Below, in pieces: positions 1 to 32,909 of a stretch of 32,909 nucleotides of DNA (position 1 is its first letter; every line of letters starts with the position of its first letter). The position numbers were made by a program, and so were the translations under genes. The DNA lies in the NCBI GenBank assembly GCA_036172245.1, contig JAYWIR010000112.1, positions 124,001 to 156,909 of the forward strand, in the 5' to 3' direction. The DNA comes from Raillietiella orientalis. Its lineage: Eukaryota. Below the pieces are notes generated by a model that had not been told where the DNA came from, searched no databases, and was given only the letters and a program-made list of their open reading frames with translations.

Positions 1-1
1 A

Positions 2-3883: not shown

Positions 3884-3895
3884 GCGCCGTCGCGA

Positions 3896-4150
3896 TTAAC
3901 ACCCGGATGTGCCGGGGCATTTATTTCTTAGAAATAAAAATACACGAAATTTCGCGTGGCGAACCCGAAGGTTCATCACTCCAAAACAGCTTGCTGATTA
4001 CCGGCTCCATGCCGGAGAGGTCATTCCGATGCGCGGGGATGGGAAATAAAGAAAAACAAAAAGAAACAAAAAGTTCAAATGTGGGGGGGGAACAAATGTT
4101 GTAGGGGTGGGAGGGCCGGGAAGGGATCACGGCGCGCGTGGAAAGGTCCT
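3896..4150 (-). other. 3' UTR with U-rich tract, hairpins, AATAAA and terminal stem-loop
   Basis: Minus strand shows CCGGC-atgga-GCCGG, GAACC-TTCG-GGTTC, AATAAA (3925-3920) and CCCGG-cacat-CCGGG (3916-3902). Confidence 0.75.
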
Positions 4151-5360
4151 CTAGATCCTATTCAGGATCCGCACAAGCTGAGTCCTTTCAGCGCCCAAGT
4201 GGCGCCACTTGCAGACACTGCGCGCGAAAAGGCGAGTCCAGTGTAAGGCGTTGCCGGTTGGCTGACGCCTTCTTCTGGTGGCGTTCCGAGCCGCCACTAT
4301 TCCTCTGATGCAGCAGAGGACTGCTACACTAGCGGGCGGGGACAAGGCGTCACTACAGAAGAGGCGCCTGTAAACGTCCTTTGGGCCGCATCCGCGCAAG
4401 TCCAGGATCGCCGCGAGACGATCCCACAAAGGGCGGAGGGCGCTGCACTCAAGGAGAAGGTGGGGGAATGTTTCTTTTTCCCCACACCGGTCACAATTGG
4501 GATCCACAGCCCCCCGGGTGGTGTGGTGCAGGCGTGCTTTGAATGGTTATCCCCAGAGTACCACAAGCAACGCCACATCCTGCCATTTCAGGGGGAGGGA
4601 TGCACTGTTCCAGGACGCTGGGGGCCACTTCATCTCCTCCGGAGATAGTCCGAGTAGCTCGCCCCAGCGTCGAATTCCGTTGGTCGGGACACTCGGCGTC
4701 GCGATTCCGCAAGAGAGGCGCGCGACTTCATCGATCGGATTCGCGCGGCTCCACATCGCGTGCACTGTGGCGAACGCCTCTAATGTAACAATGATGTCGC
4801 GGTCCGTGATTCTCGGCTGAATGCCCGAGAGGTGGACCACGAACGATTGTTTCAGGGCCGAGGGGACCATCCCCTTCACACCTGATCTTCAGGGGCTTTC
4901 GCAGCAGGAGCTGGACGAGAGCTGCATTCTTGCAGTGCACCTCCCTATGGCCTACCGCTCTCACTGGCATAAGTGCCAGGAGATCGTTTTCTCGCGCCCC
5001 TACGCGTTCCAGCTCTCTCCAGAGCTGTTTGCTCGTCCCATCCCAGTAAGCAACACTGATCTTGTGGCACAGAGGGGGGTTGTAGCCGCTAGCGGCGTAC
5101 GCCTGTAGCTCTGTCTCGTCAATGGGGCTCCGTGAGCCGCCGTTGCCTTAGCAACGGCGGCGAAACTTCTCGCTGGAGGCGAGGGACGATCGTTGGAGGC
5201 TTTTACTCCTCCCGAAGAAGGTCCTGAGCTGCATGGGGATTCCTCCACCTCGAATTTGCGGGCACTGGCTTCATTTTTAAATGAAAATGATCATCACACC
5301 CAAAAGAAACAGCCGCAAAAAACACCAAAGACGTAGCGCAAGAATGCACGTCTGAACATT
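3896..5360 (-). mobile_element. Internally deleted non-autonomous copy (5' UTR, ORF1 N-terminal part fused to ORF2 C-terminus, 3' UTR)
   Basis: ORF1-like pieces SPPARSFAAV, HCKNAALVQLLLRKPL and FATVHAMW run directly into the ORF2 C-terminus (RRWGELL..LPLKWQD, DPNCDRCGEKETFPHLLLEC, stop at 4151). A U-rich 3' UTR and AATAAA follow. Confidence 0.85.
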
Positions 5361-5394
5361 GGAAGAGGGCGGCTATTTATCACTCGCGTGTGCC

Positions 5395-5781
5395 GGGGCC
5401 GCTGCGCGGTGCGTGCGGTTTGACGATCACGGTCGTGTCGTCCAGCTGACTCTTAGGTGGTCCGACTCCATCGATCTGATCGTGACGAACGTGTACGCTC
5501 CAAGCGGCGCGGACCTGAAGAAAAGGAGGGCGAGGAAAACATTTTTCCTCGACCTGCGGCGCGACTGGCTCACCAAAGCAGGCGTGCAAATTGCCCATCT
5601 GGTTAGAGGCGATTTGAAGTTTCGCCTAAAACCAGGTGGGCAGAATCACGAGCGTGACGTGGTCAACGAAGTGTGCAAGGCGGTGCACACCTGTAATTTG
5701 TTTGCCAGTGCACCGGAGATGGAGGACATTATGGACCACGTGTTCCTTGTTCAGCACCTGTGAACTCGCGTTGGCAGGCGC
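5395..5781 (+). pseudogene. APE endonuclease fragment (internal part of ORF2)
   Basis: AAARCVRFDDHGR..NVYAP..GDLK(GDFN)..MDHVFL, colinear with ORF 9361..10416. Confidence 0.88.
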
Positions 5782-6779
5782 TCGGCCCTGGCCTTATACT
5801 CCGCCAGACTCCGGACGTCCGGGCATCGTGAAAAGGTACGCGCCTGCAGATGGGATCTGCTGTTCGCGACACCCTCCCAGAAGCCGAGGATAGGCAGGTG
5901 CAAGGGGAACCGGCAGCAGAACTCGCGGACCGATCTTTTCAGATCGACCCAGTCCTCGAGTTCATAGATGGCGAAGCCCCGGAGGTGTTGACGGAGATGC
6001 TCCGCCGCCTCCGAATTGCTAAGCCTGTCGGCCAGCAACCTCCAGACATTCATCAGAGGCCCTTTGCCAGGCGGGAGGAGCTCGAACTCCAGTCTAGGAT
6101 GATCCAAAATCGCGGACAGCAGGCGCCCTCTCCGACCTACTCGTGAGAGCAGGTGTTCATCGAGGAACGCATGGTCCGGCGATCTCTGCATCCCGGGCTC
6201 ACCAGCAAGCAAGTTTTGCACGCGCACGGACGCGCATACCTCGATCACCAGTTGCTTCTCCCTCAAGCGGCATCTCTCCTCTGTTAGCAGGTGGACGTTG
6301 AAGTCTCCTGCGAGGAGGTGCGCCACGTTAGGGCCGGAGTCAGCGAGCCAGCGGCTGCGCAGGCCACCAAGGAATGCAAGTCGCTGGGAGTAATGCCGGC
6401 CGCCGCACGGCGCGTAGATGTTCGTAACGACCAGGTCGATCCATTCGGACCACTTGAGGACAAGTTGGCCCACACGACCTTCCTCGTCGAAACAAACGTT
6501 CCGCACCGCCTCCGCCACCCTGCCTCGGACGAGGAACGCGACTCCGCACGTGTGCGCAGAGCCTTGCCGCCAGTGTAGCGTCCCGCCCGCGCGCTCTTCC
6601 AGATCCGATGCCTGCCGTTCGGAGATGCTATGCATCTCCTGCAGCAGCACCAGATCGAACGCGCGCAAAGCGTTGGCTACCATCCGCTTTTTGTCAGCAT
6701 CACGTAGCCCGTTGACATTCCAACAGGCCACGCTGACGCGACGAGCGGACGCGAGTCCACGCATGACTGCTGCGGACAT
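5777..6779 (-). pseudogene. ORF2 N-terminus of copy B: uninterrupted APE endonuclease and linker, truncated before RT
   Basis: ORF 5751..6779 carries WNVNGL, LLQE, NIYAP, AGDFN, PDH and LDH. Homology ends at AEYKARAER. It is a divergent subfamily relative to the 9361 copy. Confidence 0.92.
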
Positions 6780-8706
6780 GACGGCGAGCTCCTCGCCCCT
6801 TCCGGCGAGAAGTCAGCTGGTAGGAGAGCGGATTGGGAAGCGGAATCGCACCCGTTCGCCGCCACATCGCCCCCAGCTGAGTCCTGGGAGCCGAGGATCA
6901 TCGAATCGGTCTCCGTGCAGGAGCCGGAACCGCCTCCGGCAACAGGCTCGTGCTTTCGCACTTTAGCACGGCGCGCTACCGGCTTACCCCGGCATGCGCG
7001 CTCCATTTGTTTGCACTCGGACTCCACCTCGGAGTCCGAGTGCCTGGCGCGAGACTGGCGTTTTGCCAGTCTCTTTTTGTTTCGGCAGGTGGAGGCTTGC
7101 CCTGCCCGGGCGGGGGTCGTCGCAGTCGCCAACGCAGCTTCCGGAGCTTTGGCTTCCGCAGCCGCCCTCTCGCGCGAAGCGACGGAGACAGAGCACGCAG
7201 CCGTAGTGCGTAACTGGGTACGCACCTTCCTCGGCGTGCTTCTCCTTTGCCTCCCACCTACCTTAAGGATGGGGAATATTGAAGGGTCAACCTTCTTCTC
7301 CCGCTTTGTGGGCGTTCTGGAGACTCGAGTCCAGCTTGCGTCGGAGACGCCCTCCTGGGAGGCCGACGTCTCCCTCAATTGTTTGGCCGGAGATGCCAGC
7401 TCACGTTTCGCGCTCGCGGCGGGAGACGGCTCCGTCCCCGTTACGCACTGCACCTGCTCCTTAGCCGATGCGGGCGAAACGGCGGTCATTGCCGTCGTCC
7501 CGCGAGGCGCTATTGCAGCCTTCGCTGCTCGTGCCTTCGGCATGGAAGACTTGATCTCCACCGCCGTAGGAGGAGACTGCCGTTCAGAGGCAGCTCTCAG
7601 GGTACGCGCGCACGGTTTCCCGTGTGCTCCGCTGGACGCGCAAGCGGACGCGGACGGATCAGCAGCCTTGATTGAGTGCGTGCCCGCACTCTTAGGCTGC
7701 TTCGAAGGGGGCGATTTGCCCCCAGGGCGACGTGGCATCTTTCCCTTCTGCGCGGTTGTCTGGGATGGTGGCTTTCCTGAAGCAACCGCGCCCTTTTTCG
7801 CGGGACCGCCACTCGAAGATGCCCCGCCCTTCGCGCCCGATTTCTCCCGTGGCACAACGGGGGATCTTTTCGGCGCGAACAAGGTTGATTGTTGGCGGCT
7901 TTTCGCCTCCCTCTTTCTCTTCAGCTCGGCGCACTCTTTGATGGAGTGGCCGGGCTGTTTACAATAGCGGCAGTTGCGTGAAGGACACGTCCACAAACGG
8001 TGACCCTCTGCACCGCAAATGCCGCAAGCCGGTCGCTGACCGGCAAATTTAAGGTGGACGATCGCATCGCCCACCTGCAAGTGCGGAGGCATTTGCCTCC
8101 TATCCGCCATGGTAACACGCGCCATGGAAGTCCGCTGTGGAGAGATGCAATCCTTTTGATCGGATTTTCTGCTCTCCACAGCGCGTGCACCGTGGCGAAT
8201 GCACTTAGTGCAGCGACGAGCACGCGATCGGGCGTGTCCACCTGGACGGCGGACAATCGGACCACGGACGACTGGTCCATGGCCGACGGGACGACCTCCT
8301 TCCCGCGGATATTTAGCGAGGCTCGGAGAAGGCGCTGGACTAGGGATGCCTCTTTGCAGTGCACCTCCCAGTGTCCGAGCGCGTTAATCGGCATGACGGC
8401 CAGGAGGTCGTCCTGTCGGACCCCGAGGCGCAAAAGCTCGTCTCACAAATTTTCTCCGACCCCGTCGGAGTTCGCAGCACTCACCGGATAGCAAAGCGCA
8501 GGCTTGTAGCCATGGGCTGCATATGCCTGCAGCTCTGCTTCGCTGGGCGGTGCTCCGTTGGCTACCGCCGCCTTGACGACTTCGGCGAAGCTTCTCGCCG
8601 GTGGCGAGACACAAGAATCAGAGGCGGACCGGACATCTGGAGTAGAGTCTAAACTGCCAGTAGCAGCCCCCACATCCATCTTTTGCTGCAGGGGCTCCGT
8701 GGACAT
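6677..8706 (-). pseudogene. ORF1 of copy B (two CCHC knuckles), frameshifted, with its end overlapping the ORF2 start
   Basis: ORFs 8443..8739, 7921..8433 and 6677..8179 tile one ORF1: SPPARSFAEV, HCKEASLVQRLLR, CGICGAEGHRLWTC, CRYCKQPGHSIKEC. Confidence 0.9.
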
Positions 8707-8843
8707 CCCAGTGTACGCACTCGGGCACACCACACACAAGAAGACGGAAAGGAATCACGCTCGACGAGCAACACAGAACACGTCAGTGCACCGTTGTCGT
8801 CGAGCGTATTCCATACCGCTGCGAAAAAGAACTCGCCGCTACT

Positions 8844-9346
8844 GACGGCAACCCCTCTGTTGACTCTGTCAACAGCGAGGGGAGCGAGCCGGCGGCGGCG
8901 TTGTCATCGACACCACCATCGATGACGTAGCCTTCGCGCTAGCCGCGGAGGAGCTGGCGGCATCGTTGGTGCCAGAACCCTGCAAGGCTGGCAAGAAGGC
9001 CGTAAGGCGTCCGGCCTCCCCTCAGGAGTCCCCCACCTCCGACCCCGAGGTGGAGACCGGAAGCGCAGCCTCCGTTTCCACGGCGCCGCGCAAGAAGTGT
9101 GGACGTAAGTCCACAAAGCCAAGGAAGCTCGTCTCCCCCGTCAAAGGGGAAGAGATGGCTTCCGCAAGCGAGGGTGCCATGAGCGTAGGAAATTCTCGGG
9201 ACCCATCGCCCGAGAGACTCTTACGCGCGGACACGGAGGGGATGGAGGGGGTGGAGGCCGAACAGGTGCCTGAGGTGCCTGAAAAGGACGAAACCCCCAT
9301 GGACATCCCGCGCGCCTCGCAAGAGGAGGGCTCCCCCACACCTTAA
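8844..9346 (+). pseudogene. ORF1 C-terminal fragment
   Basis: DVAFALAAEELAASL..KAVRRPA matches DVTFTKAAEELTATL..KAVRRPA in the ORF1 at 14805..15431. It stops 14 nt before the ORF2 ATG. Confidence 0.75.
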
Positions 9347-9360
9347 TCTTCCCAGAAGTA

Positions 9361-12300
9361 ATGCCGGGAATCTCCTCCCGCCGTCGTCTGCGCATCGCCG
9401 TTTGCAACGTAAACGGCATGACAGACGCCGGCAGGAGGCGAGACATGGCCGCCCTTCTGGAGTCCTACGACCTTGCGCTGCTGCAAGAGATCCACGTGAT
9501 CTCTGCAGAACAAGCGCAAGAGATCGAACGGATCTCCGGAAGGCGGCTATGGTACAGGTATGGGAGAGCGAAAAGTTGCGGTGTCGCCTACCTGCTTCGG
9601 CCAGCCGTCGAGGCCGCGGCTCGGGGCGTGCAGTTCGACGATCACGGTCGTGTCGGCCAGCTGACTCTCAGGTGGTCCGACTCGATCGATCTGATCGTCA
9701 CGAACGTGTTCGCACCGAGCTGCGCGGACCTGATGACCAGGAGGGCGAGGACAGAGTTTTTCCTTTCCCTGCGGCGAGACTGGCTGGCCGAAGCAGGCGT
9801 GCGGAATGCCCATCTGGTTGCAGGCGATTTCAACGTTCGCCTGAAACCAGATGGGCAGAATCCCGAGCGTGACCTGGTCGACGAGGTGTGCATGGCGGTG
9901 CACACCTGTAATTTGTTGGCCAGTGCACCGGGGATGGAAGACAGCATTGACCACGTGTTTCTTGACGAGCACCTGCGCCCTCGCGTGGGCAGGCGCGGCA
10001 AGTTACCGTGCGAGCCGTCCGACCATCGCCCGCTAGTCCTCGAGATCCATCCGCGAGACAGGGGCCCACCCTCGTCAGCGTGGCGTCTCCCAGGGGACTG
10101 CCTGAAGCTCCTGGACGCGGCGGAACATCTCCGCACGTTCATACCGAGCTTCAGGCTGCGGACACTCCAGGATTGGGACCGCTTCAAGCGGTCGGTCCAG
10201 GAGTTCTGCGACCAGTTTCCTCTGCACCGCCTACCTACGGGTTTTGGGACCGGGGTCCGTAACGAACGAGCCTACCTGCGGGCCCGTCGTTACGCCAGGA
10301 CCCCCGACATCCGCAGGCTGGCGGAATACAAAGCGGGAGCAGAGAGGCAAGCCTGGCAGTCCGGATCAGCCAGCTTACTGGACGATCAGGGCCAGGAGCA
10401 CTCGGCCCCTGCCTAAATCCGCGGCCTGCTGCGGAGTTACTACTCCTTCCTGTATGCCAGGGCACCTCCGGAGAGGAACGTCTCACGACTCCTGCTTCCG
10501 GAAGGCGCTCCAGCGATCGGGGAGGAGCAGAGAAAGACCCTCGTCGAGCCTTTCACGATGAACGAGATCCTCTCGGCCATCGGAAAGCTCAAGAGGCGAA
10601 AGGCTCCAGGGGAGGACGGGCTGCCTGCGGAGTTTTAACAAACTTTCGCGGCTGAACTTTCCCCCCTGGTACAGCAACTCACCTTGCAGATACGCGAGAC
10701 AGGTGACGTTCCCGCCTTGTTTCGTTCGGCAAAGGTGCGGCTTCTCTCTAAGGGAGGAGATCTGAGGAGCATGAACAACTGACGTTCCATCACAATAGTG
10801 AATGCTGATGCCAAGTTGATAGCTAAGGTTTGGGCTGAGCGCTTGGTACGGGTTGCAAACTCCTTCATCAGCCTGGAACAGACGTATGTTGTTTCTGGGC
10901 GAAGCATGGAGGCGAACCTGTTCCACTCTTGCACCTGACTAGAGCTCCAACACGAAAGGGGCTTGATGCGCACCGGTAATTCCGGTGAGTCCGCAGTCAT
11001 GCGACGGATGGTCGGATGGGGAAGGGATTACTTGCGGTCGCTGTCGACTTGCGTAGAGCATTCGAAAGCGTTGACCAGAATCTCCTGCTGGAGCTTTTGG
11101 AACGCTTGGGCTTCCCGGCCTCATTATTGGCTATCTGCGCTCTAGCTGGCGCGATGCGCTAATCAATGTTACTTTCAGCGGACATACTGTTCACGGCGTG
11201 CCGGTTCGACGTGGGATCCAGTAGGGAGACAGGCTGAGCCACTTGCTTTTCAGTACCTACTTTTAGTTGGTACTGAGTGCGTACAGGGGAACTCTGGCGC
11301 ACCTGCCGCACGACTGTGCCGGCACGCCTGCGGTTTCAGCATATGCGGACGACCTTATTCTACTGCTCCCTATTTCATCCCCGGTTTCGGCAGTCGAGAA
11401 GTTGTTTGACCTGCTAAATCGAGGAACCGGGCTTACGGTGAACAGGGCGAAGTCGTCCGTGATGTCAGTTTGTGCAGCGTAGGCAGGGCAGCAGGACTGG
11501 GTCCGTTTGGGGATCCCCACGGTGAGGTACTTCAGGTTCCTTGGTGTGCCGTTGGGGGACTACTCCCCTGCGGAAGCGTGGTCCGGCTGCCTCCAAAAAG
11601 TAGAGACGGAGATCGGCCCGTTCCGAGGCGGGAGGTTTTTCCTGCCTGAACGGGCCGCGGTTTGGAACACGTTGGCGGCTCCTCTCCTCCGCCTCCTGCT
11701 TTTTGTTTGCCCCCCCACAGAGAGAATTAAAAAGCGGACAAAGGACCTCCTCCGTATCGCCCTTTCGGGCAACGGAAGGCCCGAGACCGCTTAAAGGACT
11801 TGTGCGCTCCTCATCGGGATGGTGGTCTGGGCCTCCTGACGCTGGAGCGGCTGGAGCTTCAGCTTCAGTTCCGATTGTCGGCACTCGTTCCAGAGTTGTG
11901 GTGCACCTGTTGGGGCGTCCCTGCACGTCTCCTTCTCCAGCAAGCCACCGGCAAGACGGGACTGACTTCGTTTCTTGCACTCCGTCGTCGCGTCAACCAT
12001 TGCGGACTCCAGCTACGGAGGGTGGCTACGCTGTATCGGAAAAACCCAGGATTGCTCACCTGTCGCCCTTTCTAAGGTAGTGCCTGGTTGCAGGAAACCG
12101 TTCGAACGTGGGGATAGTTCGGCATGCAACTCTGCCAACGGGAACGAAGGTTCCTGTTTGGGGGTTACAGAAGTAGCACGCTCTGCGAGATCCTGGAGGA
12201 TCCAAAGAACAGAGCGTGGGCAGGAAGAAACCCCCTCACTGCTGCGCTGCCCTCCCTGATGGAAGATCTGGACAGCGATGTTGCGGCGAAGTGGGAGGTT

Positions 12301-12939
12301 TCAGTTACAATCTCCGGAAAGAAGAAGAAGATAGGAGAGTGGAAGACGGGCCAGTTAACAGACGCTGCGTCCCCGAGTACGCCTCCCAATGGACTTCTGC
12401 GCTGGGGCGCGGTCCTCGATGTTCCCATTGTACATCTGAAGTGGCTCCCGGTGCTCATGAACACTTCCGCCCTCCCCTTAAAATGGCAGGATTCGGCTCT
12501 CCTGTTGCAGCACTGGGGACTCCCCTGCAACGCCCGCCCACACCACTGGACCTGGGGAGCGGTGGACCCCAATTGCGTCAGGTGTGGGGAACGGGATTTC
12601 CTCCGCCACCTGCTAGTGGATTGTGTTGCCCTTCGGCCCCTTTGGTTTCGCTTTGCCGCGGCCATCGGAATCCCCTGCGGCAACCCGAGGGACGCACTGA
12701 AAGCCCTCTTCGTTGCCGACGCCCTTCGGCCAGCGGCCTCGTTAGCAGCTTTGTGCTGCCTACGCGGGATCGTCACCGCTTGGAGCAAGGCTACGGGAGG
12801 ACAACGCGACCAGAGTGCCATCCAGCCAGCCTCCCAGTTCCTGAGGAGGGCGTCCCGATGGCCCCATTTGGATCCAGAAATACAGAAGGAGCTTGCCGGG
12901 ATCCTGCAAAGGATGCAACGGCCCCACCAGCAACTGTGA
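9361..12939 (+). pseudogene. Full-length ORF2 (APE endonuclease, RT, C-terminal zinc finger), inactivated
   Basis: EN in ORF 9361..10416, then KAPGEDG, YADD at 11342-11353, FRFLGVPL, DGGLG and CVRCGERDFLRHLLVDC. Many stops (e.g. 10414, 10636, 10936) and frameshifts. Confidence 0.95.
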
Positions 12940-13156
12940 TCCCTTTATTTACCCTCCCAACTTTTCTTTTCTTTTTTGTTTTGTTTTTTGTTTTTCCCCC
13001 TTCCCCCTGCTGCCGTGGTGGACCATACCGGTCTGCGATCCGGTGACCCGGCAGGCTCTGTGTTTCTTCGTGCGTGGCTGGAGCAATGGTCCAGCCACCG
13101 CACGTCTTTGTAAATGTTTATTTTACAATAAACGCCCCTGCGAAATATGGGTGAAA
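12940..13156 (+). other. 3' UTR with U-rich tract, hairpins, AATAAA and terminal stem-loop
   Basis: T-rich tract 12962-12995, hairpin CGTGCGTGGCTGGA..TCCAGCCACCGCACG (~13069-13104), AATAAA at 13127-13132, then CGCCC..GAAA..GGGTG. Confidence 0.8.
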
Positions 13157-14010
13157 ATCGAACGCTTTATGCAGATCGACTGTGATCGCTAGGGCCCCCT
13201 TCCCCACCTGGGATTCCTGTCCGTGCCCGGCTGACGCCTCCAAAGCTGGGCTGCCAATCATTCCCTCTTCCTTTTCTTCACTTCTCTGCACATGAAACCA
13301 TGTGCTCGCGAAGAAGTGGTTGGACTCCATACTTTGCCTGGGAACAGCGTAATTCTGCTCCGGGCTAATTATGGAATTGGCCACCTGCCCCAGACGCGAA
13401 GCCCACATTGCGGCGATCAGCTTGGCGTATGTATTCACAATTGTGATCGGACGCCAGTTGCTGAGTTTCCTGAGGTCTCCTCCTTTCGGAAGGAGCCTCA
13501 CTCTGGCTGACCGAAACGAGGCGGGTACATCGCCTCCATCTCGGATCAGCCTTGTCAACTCAGGCACCAGGGGTGCCAACTCTGCCGCGAGCATCGAAAA
13601 AACTGCGCGCGCAGGCCGTCCTTCCCTGGTGCTTTCCGCTTCTTGAGCCTTCTGATACCGGCGAGAACTTCGCCGGTGGTATAAGGCTCGTCGAGGCTTT
13701 TCTTCTCCTCCTACTCTATTGCCGGGGCACCGTCCGGAAGAAAGCGCCGAGAGGCATCTTGGTCCGGGGGCGCCCTGGCGTAAAGGGAGGGATAATAACG
13801 CCGCACGAGGTGCCGTATTCTAGCCGGAGCCGAGTGCTCCCGGCCCTGGTCGTCCAGCAAGCTGGCCGACCCGGATTGCCGGGCTTGACGTTCGGCCCCG
13901 GCTCGGTACTCTGCCAGGCGACGGACATTGGGGTTTCTCGCGTAACGACGGGCATACAGGTACGTGAGATGGTTATGGACCCCTTCACCAAATTCCCGGA
14001 TTGCAGACAT
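13118..14010 (-). pseudogene. Antisense ORF2 fragment (EN-RT linker to RT motif DLHKAFD) lying between copies C and D
   Basis: ATG at 14010 opens MSAIREFGEGVHNHLTYLYARRYAR. After a stop at 13711 and a frameshift it reads NWRPITIVN..SPEQ..DLHKAFD. The last 12 codons are the antisense of copy C's 3' end. Confidence 0.88.
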
Positions 14011-14089
14011 GTTTTTCCGTTGCTCCGTCAACGAGTACCGGAAAGCGGTTTCTTCTTGGGAAGTGTGTGTTTTTTCACATCGTTGGTGT

Positions 14090-15387
14090 CCATTGGCATC
14101 GCTGCCAGTGGACACCACGATGAAGCTAGTCGTTGAGGAGGCAAATATTCCTCACGGTTTACTCGAGCAGGGGCATTCGCCCCGGATTCATCCCCGGAAA
14201 AGCCGAGGACGTGGAGCGCCATGGTTTTCGCGCCTAGCGCGGAAACCCTGGCGGAGCAAGCGGCCTACAGGGATTCCGGATATCAACCATCACTGGTATA
14301 TAAGGTAGGACCCCTGTTTGATGGTCGCACCGCCCGGGCCTTTAGCAAGGCATCACAAGATTTTCTTGTTCGCGAGGAGGATCTTGACGGCCTTTCCTTA
14401 CTCAGCGGGGGCAGCGAGTGGAGGTCGTCTGCAAAGACGTAGCCTTAGCACAGCGCTTCATAGACACCTCGCTGAATGTGGATGGCCGGAAGATCCTACC
14501 GGGTAGCACTACGGAGCGGTCCATCTAACCGGGATAACGAACCGCATGACGCGTTCTGCGGTGAACGACGAACTAAAAGAGTACGGTAAGGTACACGCGC
14601 TGTGGGCAAAGCCAACCATCTTTGATGGCTTTCATAGCTATTTCGGAGGGCAGGCTGCAGCGCGTGTCACCGTAAATGAGAGTGCTGGGTTGCCCCACAA
14701 ACTGGAGATCGCAAAAGAATCCGTCGACCTCTGGTACGTGGGAAAACCCCGCTACTGTGCCTACTGAAATGCAGTAGGGCACTTGCACAAGCGGTGCCCG
14801 AAAATTGTGTCACCTATGCGGGGAGAAGGGGCACATTCGACGCGTGTGCCCTAAGCTTCTCACGCCGATGCCCCCTGCTGCCAAAAAGGCACAGGGAAAG
14901 CGTGGAAATCTGGTGGAAAGACCAGCGCGTGACAATGGCCCGCCCCAGCCGCCATCTCCTCCTCCTCCCACGCAGACGTCGGATGATAAAACCGCGGAAG
15001 ACGCGGAAATTGAGGAGGGATGGCAACTGGTAAAGGCCAGGAAGGAGAAACAAGTGGTGGAAGAAGCACTGAAAAAAACGGAGAAAAAGTACACGGCCGG
15101 CAAAAAGAATAAAGCCGCGTCGCTGTCAAAAAAAATTCGCGAGTGCTCGGTAGCACTAAATCGCGTAATCGTTCCTCAGGCTTTCACCCGGGGCTACGAG
15201 CCTCCCCTCTCCGTTTGCGCCGCGCACGAGGTTCGCGACAACAAACCTTCTGTTTACACAGAGGTGGAGCCGAGCGACGCGCTCGCCGCCGGCGAGGACG
15301 TCACCTTCACGAAGGCGGCGGAGGAGCTCACGGCTACGCTGGCCGAGCGTGAGAACCCCTCTCGCAAGGCCGTGCGAAGGCCGGCTC
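14090..15387 (+). pseudogene. ORF1 of copy D (divergent subfamily), 3'-truncated
   Basis: ORFs 14221..14442, 14546..14767 and 14805..15431 give YGKVHALW, GQAAARVTV, CAY*NAVGHLHKRC and CHLCGEKGHIRRVC. Confidence 0.87.
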
Positions 15388-16339
15388 TCTTAGTTTCCTT
15401 GTGTCTTCCTTATGGAATCGCCTGCGCTTAACTGACCAACTGCCCCAGTGATCCGGTCAACCGGGTGAAGTTTGTTGATGACTCAACAGATTTAGTCTGT
15501 GAGGGAAAAGTAGTAAGTACAGATTATGCATCTCCCACCCTTTCAAGGAGTGGCCTACAGCACGGCATGGCTAATGAGATTGTTCATAGCTCATCAGATG
15601 GACCATCATCTGAAGCGAATACTCAATTCAAGATCGCGGTGAAAACATCGTATTAACAAATTTTCTTCCTAGGGTTTAATCGTATAAGCAGCACATTCCC
15701 ACCAACGAATTTATGGTTGACGGAATTACAAAGCTCGGATTTTGGATTTCCACTTTTTCATTCGAGGTCGATGCGTCTCGCGATCGTTTCTCGCAGTACG
15801 CCTATTTTGAAATGCAGATTGAGAAGATGCTTGGAAGTGTACCATATGAAGGGAAGTATAGAGGTAAGAGATAAAGTAAAGGCGTTCAATTTGCCCAATT
15901 TTGGGCGTCTCACACGCAGACTTGCTGTCACGTTGGTACACCATCCGATGGCAGCCAGTTTTCCAGCTTTCAGTCGCCGACTAGCCGATAACCAGGCTAG
16001 AAACGCTCGTAGTTCGCAGTAAGCTTTATGCTTTTCTTCGAAATGAATTGCTGTCCATCCTTTGTGGGATCACTTTCAAATATTCTGTTGTCCACCAGTA
16101 TAGCCGATGAGAGAAGCGAATTCTTTTTGATGTACATGAATTTTCCTATGTGCTTTTCAACTGTTCAAGGAAACTCAAAGAAACAGCTGAATCGAACACT
16201 TCATGATCTCCTGACCACTTCATAATGCTCTGAGAAATTCAAGCAAGAAGAACAATAAAAGGTAGTGTAAAGTAAGAAAACAACTTGCTGATAATTTTCG
16301 ATTGCCCTGTACGGTGATTACCTGCAAATGATTTCCTTC

Positions 16340-16890
16340 ATGGTTACAGATCTGTTCCTCCTACTCCTTGGAGAGATTAGGCCAGCTTACGGTTATCCGC
16401 GAGAAAACGATCATGAAAGTTCAGGGTTACGTTTTCGTCAGGAACGCGTTGTTAACTTTTTGTTGAAGAGTGGCCGTTACATAGCTGTGATCTCCACACT
16501 AAGCGCCCTGCCGATGCAACTGAAAACACCTTTCGTCAATTTTCAAGCAGTTTCCTTCTGCCTAACACAACTCTGGTATTTTTCCAATTTGCTAACTGAG
16601 CTAGCGCTCTTGGGATGAGGCAGGATCTGTGAGGCTAGCTCTAGAACAAGTGGTGCAATGGAGATCCCAAGCCGATTACTTAGGCTGCAATTCCGATCGC
16701 TTCTAGGCGCAGTAGATCACGCCTTTTTCTTCAGATCCACACATATTCCCAGCAGTTGCAGCCGTAAATATTTCCGCACCCTGGAACTGTTTCTTGGATA
16801 CAGGCAGTGCAGCTGGTTAGCATTAGGGAGATCCAAGTGTTCTCTTGCATCAGAGGAACCATTTGCTGCTGCATATGGCCATATTCTCTC
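16340..16890 (+). pseudogene. Highly degenerate relic of the ORF2 post-RT region
   Basis: Colinear weak matches to copy C: RFRQERVV ~ RFFLPERAA, LALLG*GR ~ IALSGNGR, RLLRLQFR ~ RLELQLQFR, CSWL ~ SAWL. Confidence 0.4.
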
Positions 16891-16899
16891 AGGCTAATC

Positions 16900-17450
16900 T
16901 CGTTCCGCACGGCAATCGACGAGAGCACTTCGGATGGTGGCGGTCTTCTAGAGAGACTCTTCCTGTGCTCACAAAGACGTGGTCCATTGCTTCATCACAA
17001 GTGCACGTCCTCTGAACTGGAGCTCCAGCCCTAATCTCTGCAGAGTAAGAAGGCTTGGTCCACCATTCCAGATGGGAAAACACAATTCTTTGAATTGGAC
17101 ACGGGATCTCTCTGTACAGAAAAGAAAGAGAAAGAAAAGAGAAACAACAGGAGAAACTATCAAGAGAAACAACGTGGAGAAATCCTTATACCGCTTTTTC
17201 ATGGTGACAAGGCTCTTCGCAAAGAGGACAGAAATTCTCAGTGCTAACGAGTGACATGTGAACGGGTGGCTCCTCAAGCATTGCGGGTCGTTCTTTTTGG
17301 CTGACAGTGGAAACTTGGCAGATGCGTAGGAGTTAGGTACTTGGCCTATCTCCCGATCATTATCGCTAATCCGTGTGAGCAAATTCTGCAGCAGAGTTTC
17401 CAAAATTCTTCGGAAAACTCGCACGCGGAGAAGAAATGTTGGCTCTCTCC
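16900..17450 (-). pseudogene. Degenerate relic of the ORF2 post-RT region
   Basis: RSRVQFKELCFPIWNGGPSLLTLQRLGLELQFRGRALVMKQW aligns with RARVRLKDLCAPRRDGGLGLLTLERLGLQLQFRILALVLELW (ORF 28648..29283). Also MKKRYKDF ~ IKKRTKDL. Confidence 0.75.
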
Positions 17451-18269
17451 TCTGTAGTGGCTGCTGCATTCGTTTCCTCGGGAAAAGTCCCGAAAGACGG
17501 CTAAAGACTCCTCCTCCGACAGCGTGCTCATGGCTGCTTGCAGCGGCTCTGTAGCTCACTTTTGTTCAAAAGGCGCACTTGCTGACAACGGTGTTTCACC
17601 ACGTGGCCTGCGTGCTTGGTCGCGGAAAACAATTAGTCAGACTTGTGGAAGGCCTGCTGCACCGTGGCAAGCTCAGCAAATTACTTTTTCCCTAGAAACT
17701 TTGGGGTGCCTTCCTCCGTTCGTTCCAAGTAATTTCATTGCGCTGAAGTACTTCAATTCGATGTCGAATATGGTTACTTGATGCTGTAGAACCAGTGAGG
17801 AGCTTTTTCAGAGGACTTGTGATCCTCCGAAAGCAGAAGCCCCCAGAAAGTGGTGTGAATGGAGAAAAAGTATCGCTAGTGTTCTTATTTGCCTAAAGCC
17901 CCTTTCACCCTTGGCATCGCCTTGTTCACTAGAACTGCTGCTGGCATTCCATACCGTGAACTCTGCTACATTGTCCCTTTCGCAGTACCACTTTCTTCCT
18001 ATAAAATGCCCTTTCTGGTAAGCATCTAGCTTCCTGCTTTCGGTGCGCCACATTCTTCAGGCAGTATACCTTCCGAAAATTGTTTGGTATCTAGTTGAGT
18101 TGGAAGCATGTACTGCATCTTCCGATTTCTAAGGCGATTACAAAGTGACTACGTCCCTTGTGCCCAAAATCTTTTTGTGGGAATTTGTGGCTGTCGTGCA
18201 CCTATTTCTATTTCATTAGTTTGCCACGTTTCCTGCAAATGAAACATTTTCGCATCTTTACAGCAGAGA

Positions 18270-18560
18270 GAGCGCCTGATGTTCGTTTCCTGTGACCTCA
18301 CAGAGTGCACAACTTTGGGCCTGACCAAGTAAAACCTGACGATTTTTTGTTAAGGCATAGTTCCTCTGAGATATGTGACCTATTCGCTGCACGCGTACGC
18401 ATTTTTTCCAGCCCACTGTACGTGCTGAAAGCCTGGTGTAACACTTTCTTGGTGGCAACCATCATGAACAGCACCGAACTTTGAAAGCTTGGTCGCCACC
18501 GCAACTTTCTGCTTATCGGCGGCAATCCTCCTGGATGGTGCAACACGGAATCGCCCTAGG
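18270..18560 (-). pseudogene. Degenerate relic of ORF1 (RRM-like region and first knuckle)
   Basis: VATKLSKFGAVH..PGFQHV, YSGLEKMRTRAANRSHISEELCLN and CALCEVTG align with VSVLAKFASVH..KDFPSVHIGQASARITVANRRVVPEQLQVN..CEHCVKDG. Confidence 0.6.
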
Positions 18561-21500
18561 GGATAGAAGACGTCACATCTCACCTTTCTATATACATTGA
18601 TTTCTTTAGTATGCAGTGTACCAACGCTATAGTTATACAGCAGTGCTCGATTAAGGTACCGCTACCAGCACTTACCAGCACTCTTCAAGCTCTCTGGAAA
18701 ACGTTGAAATTTCTGAAGGATCCAAATGGAAAAGAAGTTTGATACCTGATGTACTTGTATTTAAGAGGAACTGTTGCATCCATGGACCTCAAGACCAAAA
18801 GAAGTCCTGGTCAGCAGGCATATGTTTTTATCCCTGCTGATTGAGGCAGCCATGACTTTCAAAGACATCTCCAATGAAGCTTTTGTCACAAGGAAATAAT
18901 TGGACCCAACTTTTGAAGAGCCAATTCATGTTAAGGGGTCATCTAAAATGTAAAACCTCTCTTTGCCATCCAAGCCTCACTTGAAATGAAAAGCGTTGCT
19001 CACCTGTAAGATCAGCCGAACAACATGCGCACAGAGAGGGCGACAGACACCATCGTCTCTTTAGCGCAACCAGGAGAGAAGGCTTTTCTTGTAGAGTACG
19101 ACCCAATATACTTTACCACCAGAGCGGATGTTATTGCCTTAGAATGTGGACCTGCAGCCTTTTTCTGATCGCTCGCTCGGCGACTCTGAGCTGCTTCCAC
19201 ACCTTGCAACATTCGAAAGAGCTACTTCCCCTCCGGCTGAAGTTCTTCCTCTCAGAGTAGACAGGGCTGTGAGAAGCTTTCTGCTAAGTGATCAAGAAGA
19301 AAGCAAAACTCAAAAGGCTCGTTGTCATCGAAAAGAATCGTCAAGCCAGCGAAGTTAATCCCGAAGGAGAAGCCATCCACCACCCCAATGTGCGTAGTGC
19401 TTGGTCTGCTCCTGTTGAAAAGAGAGGACGTCGCTCAGGGAGCTCGAGAACCTCAAAGCACTCGCTTGAACGTAAACCTCACAGTGGATTGACTTGCTAA
19501 ATACTTATTATGCGGAAAAAAATACTCCCTTCTATTTGAAAAAGATTGCATGAGAACAAAATGGAAGCGGTTGCCAATACGCAGTGATTCCACTTTTTTT
19601 CCCGCTACCTCATTGCAGCGACCCAAATGTGCTCGAGCCATCCCGTAACAGTATGATCTACAAAATCCATGTGATTTACTGCGGAATAGGAATGACTTCA
19701 AAACATATGTTCTTGGTACGTAAGGCGGAATTCCTCTTTATCTTTGATTACCTTGTATTTGGATTTTGTTTGAATGAGTTGCTGCTTTCAGGGAACATGT
19801 AAGGGCAGGCCGGCTTCCAGGCTCTTTCAGGCAGTTTTATCTGACCAACTACGAAACGGTGTGCAGCTGCCTACCCGAAACCTTTGCGATATTTCTCTCC
19901 GGCGAGGAACGAATACGACCTAGAAAATGGGATTGCCATCTGTGAGGATATTGCCGGTTTTCTTTTTCAGCACTTGCGTCTAGGTTTGAGGATTTCGTGA
20001 TAACTGAATGTGGGCTGACCTAATTGTGTAGCCGGAAACACTTGTTCAACGGTGGAATCTGCATTTATGCTCAATAAATAACTCTCACCTTGCAGTTTAC
20101 CATTACAACTTACGTGGCGTCTTGTTGCCGCATCGAAGTCTCCAGTGGGCATCAGTAGGCAATCCACAGAAATCCGGCGGAATGATTCTCCCTAGGATGT
20201 ACATGGTGAGAGTATTTTCAATCCTTCTCTCCTCAGTTAGGCGGACGGTAATAACATGCGTGCCCACTCTTTAGTGGAACCAGCGCATAGTGGCAAAGCT
20301 TCGACCGGTCGGCTTGTTTCCTTCAAAGTTTTTCTCCTCCTTCACAACACATAGTGGGCAACTGAGAGCTCCTCGGCCTGCATCTTTGGATGCTTGAGCA
20401 GTCAGTCTTCTACTTCCGCGGTTGCCAACCGCGAATCGCGACTACTGGCAGTTCGTTGCTTCTATGCGGATTGGCACTCGTAATCGTTTCTCGAACCGCT
20501 GTGGGATGCAGCACGCGCGTTGCCACTACTCACAGATAGCACCGTTAGATGCGGATTGTGCTCAACTTTGATCCTACCTTGCATCATTACCATTAGAATT
20601 GTTATACTATTTTTTCGGATGACATGACGACGTTTCTTGTTAAACTCTCAAGCTTATGCGGTAATGCGCTTGCGGGTGCAAAGATGAAGACTCCTCAGGT
20701 AAAATTTCATCAGAAGCAGACTGAAACTTATGCTGTGCGATGCTCAGGATGCCTTACCGGTGAAGTGCGGAACTTCAGAAGGCTTCCGATGTTGAGGTGC
20801 ATCTCAGGATAACATCGCAGTATTCTAGGGAGGGCAAAAACAAGGAACTGTACATATCAGTGGGAATCGTTGAGTTGTTCAAACTTAACCACAAGGAATG
20901 CGCGGCGCTGTAATATCGAGAAACACTGTTTGTTTCTGTCGAAGACTTTCACGCGCGTGGGGATTCGAGGTGGTTTCATGCCACTTGGGTTCTTTTGCTA
21001 CATCGAATCCTGGATCCTTCCATGGATCAAGCACAACGTTGAAAAATTTCGCAAAAAAATGAATCATATATTTCAGCTGCTGCTGCAGGCGCTAGTGCTT
21101 CTCTTGGGAATCGGCATTCCTGCCGCAACCGGGTTGAGTTGCAAACAGCTCTGGGAGCACTTAAAATTTCGGAAGTTTACTGGAAATTGTTCGTTCTATT
21201 TGGAAATTCCGTTTGAAGACTCACCGCCTTTAACTGCTTGTAGGGCAGGATGGGGACCTGATACACGGCCAACGGAAAGTAGAGAACGATGCTCTGTCAG
21301 TGTCACGGTAAGATGACAATACACACTGAGAAATCATATCTTGGTTTCACCAGACTGACAATGGTCTCCCGGAGGATGTAAGCGTCTTCATGAACGGTGC
21401 CTGTAATGGTGCTTGCACATTTTCTCCTGAAAATGGGTAAGAGACCTTCCCATTTTGGCATCCAAGCATGCACGTTGCTTTCCCTTTTTTGCATTGATAT

Positions 21501-24500
21501 TTCCTCATGAATACCGCATGCAATTTAAATTTGGACTTCTGTTCTGCGCCTCGATGAGATTTTCATGACAGGATAAACGTGCAACTCTTTGCTTCTTAAT
21601 TTCCTCATTTTTAAAGGAACGAATGCATGTCGATGATCAGCGATGCTTTGTTTTCGTGGTGTTTTCATCACTCCTGATAAACCTGCAAGGAAATGGACCC
21701 TCGCAACTGTAAAAAAATTCACTGCGTGGCTCAGGGTGTTAAACTTTACATTAAGATTTTTTCCGATTTGAACACAGCTTTTGAGATGCAAATGAGGAAG
21801 TAAAAATGCAAACTCCTCATAAGAATGATTCAATGCGTTCACCAAACTCGCGGCATGAAAGCATCCATCCAATCCGTTGCTGGACAGACTTCCTTTTCAA
21901 AGAGCATATATTTCATTCAACCAAAACTGTATTTATTTCAGTGACCCTGTAGTTTTAAACTATATCCTGCGAATATCAACTCCGTTCAATGTTTCATGCA
22001 ATTTTAAAAAGAAATCTACATGCTGGCTGGAATTCGGTCCATATGAGTGATAGGGAGGTCCAGACAAAGGCGTAGAACATCATCCCGTAAAATACCTTGC
22101 AAGAACCTAATAATGATAGGAAAACTAATCATTTGTGGCTTTGCAAATAAACCGTTTACGGTTCTTATTTATTCCATTTACTAATATGGCAGCACCATCG
22201 AAGAAGCTCATCAATCCACAGAGCATTCAAACACTTGATCACCAGGACTGTGACTTACGTTCCGAGTCCCAAGTAACTGCAGTGCACACACTGATGGCAG
22301 TTCGAGAGTGAGGTGCGTCCGGGTGAAAGATCATCTGATCATCTGACCTGTTTGCGGACACCTTCAGTGCTCTTTCTGAAAGTCATGCAGATGCGCACAA
22401 TTGATGGGTCCCTAGAAGGAAATTTCTCGGCACATGCACAGCGTGCTGCTACATGAATAGGGAGCGAACTCGCTGCTTCGCCGTTTGAAAGCATTCGCAG
22501 CGATGGGTGGGTTTCCAGAATCTCCCGTCTGCGGCAAGCAGCCCAATGGCGATCAATGCACGGAATCGCACGCAACCGACCAGCCAAGTTTACGCCCGCC
22601 AGGCATAAGCAATCACGGCTTTACGCTGCTGCTATGCGTGTCCGAAAATTGGTTAACTGATACGAGAAGCGCGAATGTTGCACCTCATAATGGAATTGTG
22701 ATCGTAATCTGCACACCAATCCCGAGAATCATAGCGTTGCTTCCATATTCCGTGTGATTCAGCTAAGTCTGAGATGAGCACGTGAGAACCTCTCCGGAGT
22801 TTTTGTATGCAACCTGGAATCTCATCTGCGAAATTATAGCGGGAATTGTAAGTATTCTTCATCTACTGGACCACTTGGATGAAAACAACCAAAGTTACGT
22901 GTCTCAATAAAGCAATGCGTCTGCAACCTTGAGATGAGCCAGAATAACCTTCTATTTTGAGTTGTACGTGCACTACTCAAAGAATTGCGCTTAAACAAAA
23001 AGTTCTGGATTTGTCTTCAATGATCTCTTCTGTTTGGAGGCAGACTTGAATTTAGCACGCGATCAATGACGAAGGCTAAAGCAAGCTTCTGCAGCACCCC
23101 CCATGATTCTTGCAATGGGATATTCCCTATTCAATTTTCTCCTCGAAACATGCGAGGTTTTCAGCATATCATGCATGGAAAACATCGCGCGCATCTCTGT
23201 TACAGCTTCCTTACTTTCTACAGAGGATGCATCGTAGGCGTCTTCGCGGTCAATTGGAAGAATTCGCGCTTCAGCTGTTTCTGGAAGAAAAATTTCTATG
23301 GAACACGACGACCTACCCGCATTCCTTCTTACCAAGTTCTTGCCAACTGGTAATTCCAGTGGCTAAGGAGACTTCTAGCATTGCCTGCGTACCCCACTGA
23401 GGTGAGCAGAGGCAATCTCTCACCGATAGTCCATGCCGATGATTTCTCTAAATTATTTCCAAAAATTCTGCCTGCACTAATTTTTACTCTTTTCTTTCGG
23501 GCCATTTGCATCATGAACAGTTGCGTTACCTACTGTCCTCTGCTTCCCTTGATGATTCAACAGCTGATTGTGATCATTAAGACGACTATCTTCATCCATC
23601 ACATTTCTTCAGTCGCACTAATCCAATGCATGCAATATCGAAACGAATAACATCGTCTTCTCTCCTTCCATTTTCAGTTAATACAAATCTTATAGTTCAA
23701 TCCATATCATATCATCCAGATCACCACGGGAAACATTCTCTCTTTTGTATTCTGATATCGTCCCATCATTCTCACACCGCCATTTCCACTTGTTACCATG
23801 CAAGCAGCTGTAGCACTTATTCAAGGTTACATAGCCTTTATACTAAAAACTCTCAATTTACAAAAATGCATTCGATATCAACACACCCAGTCTGTTTTTA
23901 ACCCTTGAAGCAGAACTCAGCACTCACACTTTTTCAGCTTCACCGATAATTCTTAGACTAATCTTTACATACGCAAGAAGACACTCTTTTTCTATGTTAC
24001 AAATTTAGGTACATTTATCCAGCAGAACAGCAGTTTGAATTTCTGTGTATATTTGCAAAAATGAAAATTTGCAACCAACACTGCAACGTTCAAATCCATT
24101 CTGCGAAGAACTGTCTCACTCACTGCTTTCTTTTGAACATTCTTCAATCTTAGATTGTGAGTAAACTGAGAATTCACCTTCTCCAGACACTCGTTTAACA
24201 GATTTTCTGGATACGGATGGAATGCAATGGTCTTTGCTCGACAGTATTCACTGCTATGGTAATCCGAAGTTATTGAGTAATTGCTGGGTTTCTTTGTTCT
24301 AAAATGATTTTGTTTTGAAGTTTTGTTTTCTTACTTTCTTCTTCTTGAGGTCTCTCTGTGTAACCCACACATCATCGATGTCGAGTGAGTATAATTGATT
24401 TGAACTCAGGAATACCACTGTTAAGGCAATTCATTTCCTGAAATCAAAACACCTCAGAATTTCAGTAGACTGTCCTTCATACTGCTTGGCGCCTAGAGAA

Positions 24501-24649
24501 TTGTGGCGCATTGGTAAGCTCCAAGGAAAAATTCAGTACTGAATAGTAAGTAAAGATCATTCGGATCAACGTTCGAAAGGAGAAACACTTTGCCATCATG
24601 CCTGCTGAAAGGACTGAATATACGAAGACACGGTACTCAAACGCGGCAC

Positions 24650-24830
24650 TCGTGTTGCGTCTTCGGGGAGAAAACGCCCCTGATGCAGTAGGCTGTGGGG
24701 GTGGGCAAGCCTCCCCCACTCCTACCTCCATCGTGGTGTCCTCAGGTAAGGTTGCCATCGGACACCAACGATCTCGCACACACCAAAAACGCACAAAGAA
24801 ACCTTCCTAGAGACTCTTTCGGGAGCGCCG
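24650..24830 (-). mobile_element. 5' stub of an element (5' UTR and ORF1 start), homologous to 14015-14190
   Basis: RWCPMATLPEDTTMEVGVGEA matches RWCPLASLPVDTTMKLVVEEA. Both share ATCGTTGGTGTCC and GACACCACGATG. Confidence 0.75.
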
Positions 24831-24837
24831 GGAAAAC

Positions 24838-25427
24838 ATGTTTGCTCACCACGGCGAAGGCAAGGCAGTCAGAAACGAGCGGGCGTACCTTCATGCCCGC
24901 CATTATTCCAGGCGTCTTGACATCCGTCGCCTAGCGGAATTCAAAGCTGAGCAGATGTAGAAGGTCTGGCAGTCAGCTTCGGCCTGCCTGCTGGACCATC
25001 AGGGCCAAGAACGCACCAGCCCAGCTGAGGTAAGCCGTATCGTGCGACAGTTCTATTTGTCCTTATACGAGACTTTATCACCTGGGCGCCATTTCGCGCC
25101 GCGCCTGCTGCCGGATGGCGCTCCCGCGCTCGAGGAGAAAGTTCGTTCTAGGTTGACGGATCCGTTTACAATGGCGGAGATCATCGCCATCAGCAAGATG
25201 AAGAGAAGGAAGGCACCAGGGGACGACGACCTGCCCGCGGAGTATTACCAACGTTTCGCGCCAGAGCTGGCCCCCCTGGTGCTCAGGATAAGTACGCTGA
25301 TCCGCGAACACGGCGAAGTTCCCGCCTCGTTCCGGTCAGCAAAAATTCGTCTCCTGCCGAAGTCAGGATACCTACGCAACAATGGCAACTGGCGTCCCAT
25401 CAGCGGTGAATGCGGACGCAAAGTTGC
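24838..25427 (+). pseudogene. Antisense ORF2 fragment (EN-RT linker to RT NWRPI..NADAKL)
   Basis: ATG at 24838 opens MFAHHGEGKAVRNERAYLHAR. One TAG at 24958, then in frame with ORF 25042 (KAPGDDDLPAEYY, NWRPIS). Confidence 0.87.
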
Positions 25428-25432
25428 ATGTT

Positions 25433-27827: not shown

Positions 27828-28002
27828 ACTTTATAGAGTAATTATTAATGGGTGTGGCAATGCTCCAGCCAGAAGCTACGAATCACGGAGCCTGCCAATT
27901 CACCGGTTTCTAGACCGCTACGGTCCACCAAGGCAGCAAAGGAAAGGAAAAAAACAAAAACTAAACAAAAAGAAACAAAGGGTGGGAGGGAAGGGGAAGG
28001 GA
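27789..28002 (-). other. 3' UTR of copy E with AATAAA and a GAAA-tetraloop terminal hairpin
   Basis: Minus strand reads AATAAA (27818-27813), then ACCCGGA-GAAA-TCCGGGT (27810-27793), then AAAA. Confidence 0.82.
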
Positions 28003-32788: not shown

Positions 32789-32909
32789 GTTTTCTCCAAG
32801 TCCCGCGAGGAGTGGAATAAATTTATTTTTCTAAAATTTTTCTATAAAAACATTCACACTACAATCTATCCATACCACTTTTTCTTAACCACTCTGAAGT
32901 CCTTGGTTT

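Follow-up and report, generated by a model that had tools for sequence, protein, structure and literature searches.

How do copies of one retrotransposon family come to lie end to end, with no host DNA between them and each on the opposite strand to its neighbours? This question is raised by a stretch of 32,909 nucleotides from Raillietiella orientalis (contig JAYWIR010000112.1, positions 124,001 to 156,909; hereafter the window), in which a family of long interspersed nuclear elements (LINEs) makes up two GC-rich blocks, 1-15393 and 24553-32909 (58-63% GC). These LINE-only clusters are 15.4 kb and at least 8.4 kb long, the sole foreign DNA inside them being an AT-rich insert of ~500 bp in one copy. 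Between the blocks lies a stretch of 42-48% GC without recognisable genes. All results below concern this one 33-kb window, and fragments were compared within it.

The family is a eukaryotic, L1-like retrotransposon without long terminal repeats, because an endonuclease of the APE type and a reverse transcriptase (RT) are encoded in the GC-rich parts, accompanied by weak zinc-binding and CCHC matches. Pfam found Exo_endo_phos in the copies that we call C and B (E-values 9.6e-14 and 4.5e-12) and RVT_1 in copy E (1.6e-21), all above the cut-offs. Matches to zf-RVT at the C-terminus of the second open reading frame (ORF2), as in plant-type L1s, remained below the Pfam cut-off (24.6 and 19.1 bits vs 27.5), as did one to zf-CCHC in ORF1 (19.6 bits vs 20.8). 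CCHC patterns are visible in the translated ORF1 of copies A, B and D.

Strand alternation and the fragment map

We mapped the family fragments by tblastn, using the window's own ORF pieces as queries, and by self-blastn. From left to right, their order is A(-) A2(+) del(-) ENfrag(+) B(-) C(+) sp1(-) D(+), followed by non-LINE DNA, and then frag(+) stub(-) sp2(+) F(-) sp3(+) E(-) A'(+). The strand switches at each of the 13 junctions between adjoining family fragments (P = 1.2e-4; 2.4e-4 with a duplicated junction counted once, and ~1e-3 when two pairs with shared positions are likewise reduced to one each). True 3' ends number four (C, E, F, del), and all of them abut antisense RT-coding sequence; true 5' ends number six (A, A', B, D, stub, del), each abutting antisense family sequence, which is ORF2 at five of them and the ORF1 tail of C at the 5' end of B. 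At 10 of the 13 junctions, a true element terminus is joined to an internal antisense site. The block edges at 15393 and 24553 adjoin non-LINE DNA and are internal break points rather than element termini. These counts confirm that the alternating pattern is real and non-random. They also agree with a preliminary description of this DNA, which had claimed that neighbouring elements are separated by opposite-strand pieces of their own ORF2 and that four 3' and six 5' ends all abut antisense family fragments. That description had, however, counted the 5' junctions on the A and E sides separately. Positions 663-3884 are the reverse complement of 29571-32788 (91.7% identity by self-blastn), and the differences between A2 and E fall at similar rates on all three codon positions (0.07-0.13). 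A|A2 and E|A' thus represent a single junction, formed in one event and later copied as DNA by inverted duplication.

In the left-hand block, A (1-2015, minus strand) is a copy of the full-length type, represented by its 5' untranslated region (UTR) and an ORF1 similar to those of B and D; its 5' terminus, placed by alignment, lies at 2006-2015 (motif TGCAGACGTG). A2 (2010-3886, plus strand, found by tblastn) covers ORF2 from about amino acid (aa) 73, in the endonuclease, to just beyond the Y-x-DD box of the RT, and has the role of a 'spacer' between del and A. The internally deleted copy del (3887-5356, minus strand) consists of the N-terminal half of ORF1 fused to the C-terminus of ORF2, and both of its ends are true ones, the 3' end near 3887 and the 5' end with its motif at 5347-5356. 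ENfrag (5357-5790, plus strand) is an endonuclease piece, ~aa 100-241, of the subfamily that includes C, E and A2. B (5778-8790, minus strand) comprises the 5' UTR, ORF1 and the endonuclease through aa 355, with its 5' terminus at 8779-8790, and represents a diverged subfamily (48% aa identity to C). C (8791-13156, plus strand) begins in the C-terminal tail of ORF1 and continues through a complete ORF2 (ATG at 9362) and the 3' UTR (AATAAA at 13128) to a true 3' end without an A-tail. The spacer on which the preliminary description centred, sp1 (13157-14001, minus strand), covers ORF2 between ~aa 320, in the linker that follows the endonuclease, and the RT motif KAFD. D (14002-15393, plus strand) has a true 5' end (TGCAGACATG at 14002-11), a 5' UTR and a decayed ORF1, and stops at nucleotide ~1400 of the element, where the non-LINE DNA starts. 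Two imperfect palindromes, 86-87% self-complementary, lie in UTRs of this block: 13069-13104 in the 3' UTR of C, and 14078-14122 in the 5' UTR of D, shortly before ORF1 probably starts.

The right-hand block opens at its left edge with frag (24553-24663, plus strand), a short ORF1 piece corresponding to aa 85-121 of the ORF1 of A. It is followed by stub (24664-24846, minus strand), the first ~180 nt of a copy resembling D, whose true 5' end (AGCAAACATG) lies at 24837-46. The second spacer, sp2 (24847-25430, plus strand), covers ORF2 from ~aa 320 to ~aa 143 of the RT piece. F (25431-27221, minus strand) preserves the 3'-terminal 1.3 kb of a diverged copy, whose true 3' end lies near 25431, and the third spacer, sp3 (27228-27788, plus strand), extends from aa 37 of the RT piece to KAFD. 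E (27789-31444, minus strand) contains ORF2 from aa 73 to a true 3' end and is a relative of C (82-89% identity along ORF2, with a modest excess of differences at third codon positions). The duplicate of A, A' (31439-32909, plus strand), repeats positions 663-2015 of A and has its 5' terminus at 31439-48.

The 5' junctions

One terminal motif, (T)GCA..GAC-R-TG, with TTT..CC after it, recurs at all six true 5' ends. Five of these termini are independent (A/A', B, D, stub and del), and beyond the motif their flanks are mutually unrelated. On the other side of the junction, the partner sequence is TCTGCA in A2/E and in sp1, and TTTGCT in sp2. The conserved 5' terminus (TGCAGAC-R-TG) opens with six bases whose reverse complement is TCTGCA. 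This hexamer occurs exactly twice on the sense strand of C, at 9502 and 10221 (0.95 occurrences expected), and these two sites are the ORF2 positions joined to A/A' and to D/stub. As TCTGCA lies on the sense strand of ORF2, a join there forces the antisense orientation. The spacers sp1 and sp2 start at the same ORF2 codon, ~aa 320, meaning that two of the five independent 5' ends use the same site, their independence being judged from the divergence of the spacers. The 5' joins bear the signature of microhomology, with the end of a full-length complementary DNA (cDNA) joined to a strand of an older copy.

All five independent 5' ends also stand head-to-head with a 5'-truncated copy (A'/E, B/C, D/sp1, stub/sp2 and del/ENfrag; A/A2 is a duplicate). 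Three of these pairs (D/sp1, stub/sp2 and A'/E) are compatible, as far as they are visible, with an origin from a single RNA, and two are not. A hidden ORF2 piece was considered as the 5' flank of B, for which we found no support.

The 3' junctions

C, E, F and del have a 3' UTR in common, consisting of a T-rich tract, AATAAA and a ~25-nt tail of the GGGT type, and all four true 3' ends stop ~22-30 nt past AATAAA. None of the four ends in an A-run, as would be typical of L1 with its poly(A) or A-rich tail. A conserved 3' stem-loop was also sought, and only four weak pairs were predicted.

The target strand retained at the 3' junctions is always the sense strand of ORF2. C and E are joined directly after the KAFD codons (RT motif A) of two different spacers, sp1 and sp3, where the A-F-D codons at the junction read …TTCGAT and …TTTGAT, respectively. 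At its own junction, sp2 ends in a similar string, AAAG..TTG.AT, and A2 meets the 3' end of del just past the Y-x-DD box. As the preliminary description had noticed, the spacer at 13157 therefore shares its start with the spacer it had placed at 24838 and its end with the spacer at 27228 (we mapped the boundaries at 14001, 24847 and 27228). In C, AATAAA lies 24 nt upstream of the junction, and the bases that follow the tail, ATCGAACGC, are the reverse complement of the A-F-D codons. At its different site, del has a related tail of its own, ATCGCGACGGCG, which resembles antisense KAFD (8/12 matching). The match hints that transcription of a copy located at a KAFD site may run on for a few bases into the neighbouring flank, and that the resulting tail may then direct priming to KAFD sites elsewhere in the family.

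The spacers as probable remnants of older copies

To compare codon positions, we placed all three spacers, together with C, E and A2, in the reading frame of E. Identity among the spacers is 63-66%, in keeping with the earlier remark that they are clearly diverged, and their identity to the normal ORF2 of C, E and A2 is 64-70%. Their differences by codon position are 0.29-0.35, 0.19-0.26 and 0.50-0.53, whereas E and A2, which serve as a control for neutral decay, give a flat 0.11, 0.10 and 0.07. Because their codon pattern is so unlike flat neutral decay, the spacers must have diverged while they were still parts of working ORF2s, in different and once-active lineages. They are best explained as remnants of older copies from different subfamilies, and not as part of a mobile unit. 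We also considered snap-back copying of an element's own ORF2 as their source; this was rejected, as sp1 is only 68.5% identical to the ORF2 of C.

A proposed process: microhomology-guided antisense self-insertion

What process would join conserved termini to internal sites of older copies, always on the opposite strand? We give about an even chance to antisense self-insertion that is guided by microhomology and accompanied by inversions of the twin- or dual-priming type, with duplication later on. New copies of this L1-like, tail-less family would enter its older copies in opposite orientation. In the window, each true 3' end is joined to the sense strand of an RT-coding stretch, the outcome expected of target-primed reverse transcription from a nick in that strand. 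The 3' end of the incoming cDNA, or the nicked target strand, would anneal at short matches, and this annealing would set both the position and the antisense orientation. Head-to-head pairs would then be the products of twin priming, or of dual priming from two RNAs. The repeated hits at KAFD would reflect the last ~9 bases of the RNA (ATCGAACGC in C), which are reverse-complementary to the A-F-D codons; read-through from a copy already at a KAFD site could have supplied this tail. Later events at the DNA level would include the inverted duplication (A+A2 / E+A'), the internal deletion and the 500-bp insert. The preliminary description had put forward strict antisense self-insertion as one of two options, and refined to microhomology-guided joins it is the best fit to the data. 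Its dismissal of twin priming was too quick, as the head-to-head junctions show exactly the topology of twin or dual priming.

Several observations weigh against this reading. Two of the head-to-head pairs cannot stem from one RNA: B and C share ~1.8 kb of overlap with 48% aa identity, and in del/ENfrag the inverted piece, del, is a complete element. The KAFD site is used by only two of the four 3' ends, and the idea of guidance by a tail draws on a single degenerate example, the one in del. In no case do the two flanks of C, E, F or del join up as neighbouring parts of a single older copy. Simple nesting, in which an insert separates the left and right parts of its target, thus failed for all four, and large target deletions, or inserts that bridge two copies, must therefore be assumed. 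No target-site duplications (TSDs) were found around the insertions; where flanking pieces overlap, they belong to different copies. C and E also lose identity gradually across their junctions (0.72 to 0.67), with no sharp drop. Finally, the sample is a single window, from which inserts that bridge copies with loss of DNA, chains of template switching in single events and rearrangements that erased the evidence are indistinguishable.

A model with long TSDs, in which a target piece of 820 bp or 320 bp would stand on both sides of an insert, was also tried. It was rejected, since sp2 and sp3 are 66% identical with coding-like differences, and A2 and ENfrag 80% identical.

Antisense self-insertion might go one step further and amount to homing. 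The last bases of the transcript, reverse-complementary to the A-F-D codons of RT motif A, and its first six, reverse-complementary to TCTGCA sites in ORF2, would each direct their end of a new insertion into an older copy, in antisense orientation. We hold this to be rather unlikely. If true, it would be a self-targeting 'safe-haven' strategy that automatically builds strictly alternating, host-free arrays, and such arrays could serve as centromere-like blocks or give rise to double-stranded RNA.

Alternative explanations

Some of the same features could also arise within single events, if the RT or nascent 3' ends hopped among sense and antisense family templates at short matches and so built concatemers. 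We think this unlikely. It would account for the flanks that are not contiguous and for pieces of different subfamilies lying side by side, and both kinds of junction do fall where a terminus and an internal site are complementary over a short match. In human L1, ends extended from different mRNAs have been reported (bioRxiv 10.1101/2024.12.14.628481). However, antisense templates or free cDNAs of several subfamilies would be required in one complex. The pieces have also decayed unequally, E and sp3 having long open frames and D, sp1 and sp2 broken ones, which suggests that they differ in age.

We consider it just as improbable that the pattern arose by scrambling of an old repeat block at the DNA level, through inversions, duplications and deletions that left inherited junctions, with gene conversion keeping C and E alike. 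Rearrangement has certainly taken place: the large inverted duplication is diverging neutrally, and the internal deletion in del and the foreign insert in F show later remodelling. The alignment of C and E, which passes through the junction without an abrupt fall in identity, is also what scrambling would predict. Recombination between repeats, however, joins homologous internal points, not true termini to internal antisense sites as at most of these junctions. The junctions fall instead at short matches of the termini themselves, and the spacers diverged under coding constraint, unlike dead DNA.

The preliminary description had offered a further option, that each element is propagated together with an antisense cassette, either encoding a truncated protein of ~295 aa (linker and RT fingers) or acting through double-stranded RNA in self-silencing. 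We now regard copying of such a unit as very unlikely. It would explain why both spacer boundaries recur, and why sp1 and sp2 start with an in-frame ATG while sp1 and sp3 have a stop 12 codons past KAFD. The ATG, however, comes from the CATG of the neighbouring 5' terminus (D and stub; A, B and del have CGTG), and the stop lies in the antisense of the conserved 3' UTR; both arise because conserved termini meet ORF2 at fixed sites. No spacer has an intact frame: sp1 and sp2 are each interrupted by one stop and one frameshift, and sp3 is open but cut short by its junction with F at aa 37. Perfect matches between spacers and elements reach at most 15 nt, which would make a hairpin formed by read-through a poor source of specific small RNAs. 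Neither the protein nor the self-silencing thus finds support. Junctions in the window also fall at three distinct 5' sites and three distinct 3' sites.

A cassette inherited with its element should have diverged along with it, and this was not observed. Over the region covered by the spacers, C and E are 88% identical and differ at 0.14 of third positions; this difference is ~0.19 over the whole of ORF2, and 0.26 in the 3' UTR. Between sp1 and sp3, the third-position difference is 0.51, and their distance in a tree is 0.91 compared with 0.25 between C and E, making these two spacers ~3-4x more diverged than the elements they flank. Co-descent of C with sp1 and of E with sp3 is therefore not supported, as 0.51 lies well above the ~0.19-0.26 seen in less constrained parts of C and E. 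We also built a maximum-likelihood tree rooted with five distant outgroups, in which the spacers branch off ladder-like, first sp3, then sp2, with sp1 beside C/E/A2 (UFBoot 94 and 67), and do not make up a clade. Forcing them to be monophyletic costs 9.3 lnL, which the AU test does not formally reject (p 0.06). The preliminary description had looked to the spacers for a common clade and for signs of constraint; the coding-like differences would suit a cassette, but the spacers are paraphyletic in the tree.

A last point against the cassette comes from outside the window. A search for sequencing runs found one of DNA (X1, 0.05 word share) and none of RNA. From X1, 399 contigs matched, 258 of them <90% alike; these contigs are diverged copies of the family and not the locus in the window. 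One of them continues past the end of sp2 into more RT sequence (joining 25430 to 27745).

Least probable of all is an assembly artefact, in which a repeat-rich region was wrongly stitched together: the region is highly repetitive and the X1 run yielded diverged relatives only, but the copies, at 63-92% identity, are too different for an assembler to collapse or mis-join them, and the same junction types recur between diverged copies with a conserved terminal motif on one side.

If the pattern holds genome-wide, this would be a LINE confined to its own dead copies, with its orientation fixed by nothing but short matches between RNA ends and coding sequence. Self-targeting LINE clusters are already known, and some of them mark green-algal centromeres; this family would contribute a simple mechanism to these cases, and a natural setting in which to study twin and dual priming. 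Should the pattern fail elsewhere, the locus is an ordinary scrambled repeat block.

Later changes and other features of the window

Beyond 663 and 32788, the ends of the A/A' duplication, the last 120 nt of the window are unlike A, and a further junction lies at ~32789. ENfrag is not a duplicate of A2, as the two are 80% identical, below the value for A2 and E. The start of C (8838-9015) and the end of D (15240-15393) contain the same ~175-nt stretch from the C-terminal part of ORF1, at ~68% identity. We considered whether C|sp1|D could be a circularly permuted unit, and rejected this in view of the low identity of the terminal overlap; the shared stretch may well be a coincidence (~6% chance).

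The AT-rich insert of ~500 bp interrupts F at 26620-27122. Contigs from the X1 run join 26618 to 27122 and skip the insert, and another contig carries 26780-27120 at 97% identity. The insert holds an Rfam match to tRNA (27000-27059, plus strand; 35.4 bits), for which ARAGORN makes no call. It could be a short interspersed nuclear element derived from a tRNA, or a piece of organelle DNA.

We also searched for relatives of the family more widely. In a protein collection, the longer family proteins gave 25 matches, the best at 29% identity and the nearest at 27-29%, and the open frame of sp3 gave one match at 43% identity. Metagenome scans found no relatives by protein and 0 matches by DNA pattern. 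No Pfam family was recognised in ten ORFs, of which nine lie in the AT-rich middle and one inside F. An isolated RT-like fragment of 55 aa lies within this AT-rich, non-LINE middle (16978-17142, minus strand; 51% identical to E), and is adjoined by short purine-rich (A/G) tandem repeats at 17118-17182. The ratio of observed to expected CpG is ~1.0 in both LINE blocks (1-15400 and 24500-32909) and 0.81 in the middle (15400-24500); the LINE blocks show no sign of CpG depletion.

Comparison with known systems

Where copies are inverted at their 5' ends, the nearest comparison is with human L1. Two reports (PMC2837659, bioRxiv 10.1101/2024.12.14.628481) describe twin priming, dual priming with two mRNAs, and ends that derive from different mRNA templates. 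As far as these accounts go, the junctions here are alike in that an inverted piece stands head-to-head with a 5'-truncated sense piece, in the microhomology at the internal junction, and in the possible involvement of two RNA templates. They differ in that the inverted piece extends to the very 5' end of its template in all five independent pairs, and in that the junction recurs at the same six-base match, with no flanking TSDs seen. In the window, moreover, the 3' ends also lie in antisense family sequence.

Apparently independent insertions at the same nucleotide of a conserved target recall the site-specific LINEs, such as R1, R2, Tx1 and those of the TRAS and SART types. In R1, target-matching bases at the 3' end of the RNA start reverse transcription precisely. 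Here, however, the family would be targeting its own RT-coding sequence, in antisense orientation; just two of the four 3' ends lie at the KAFD site, and the endonuclease is of the APE type found in L1. In being made of transposons only, with no host DNA between copies, the blocks also resemble HeT-A/TART arrays and graveyards of the piRNA-cluster kind. As in the latter, the mixed orientation could give rise to both sense and antisense transcripts. HeT-A and TART form telomeric head-to-tail arrays, unlike these blocks, which give no evidence of a chromosome end, of same-strand arrays or of small RNAs.

The self-targeting itself is best matched by Zepp and ZeppL of green algae, L1-clade LINEs whose nested, GC-rich clusters are free of host DNA. 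These clusters are nested or tandem arrays that contain mostly 3' ends, according to the published accounts (PMC3446292, PMC8226300). In the literature available to us in part, in which the junctions of Zepp are described at second hand (PMC8226300), we found no description of strict strand alternation or of these junction motifs. By description, the likeness extends to a GC-rich element of the L1 type, insertion into its own copies, and LINE-only clusters that stand out as peaks of GC content. Zepp copies carry poly(A) tails. The family in the window has no A-tail, commonly retains full 5' ends and, as far as Zepp and ZeppL have been described, is set apart from them by switching strand at every junction.

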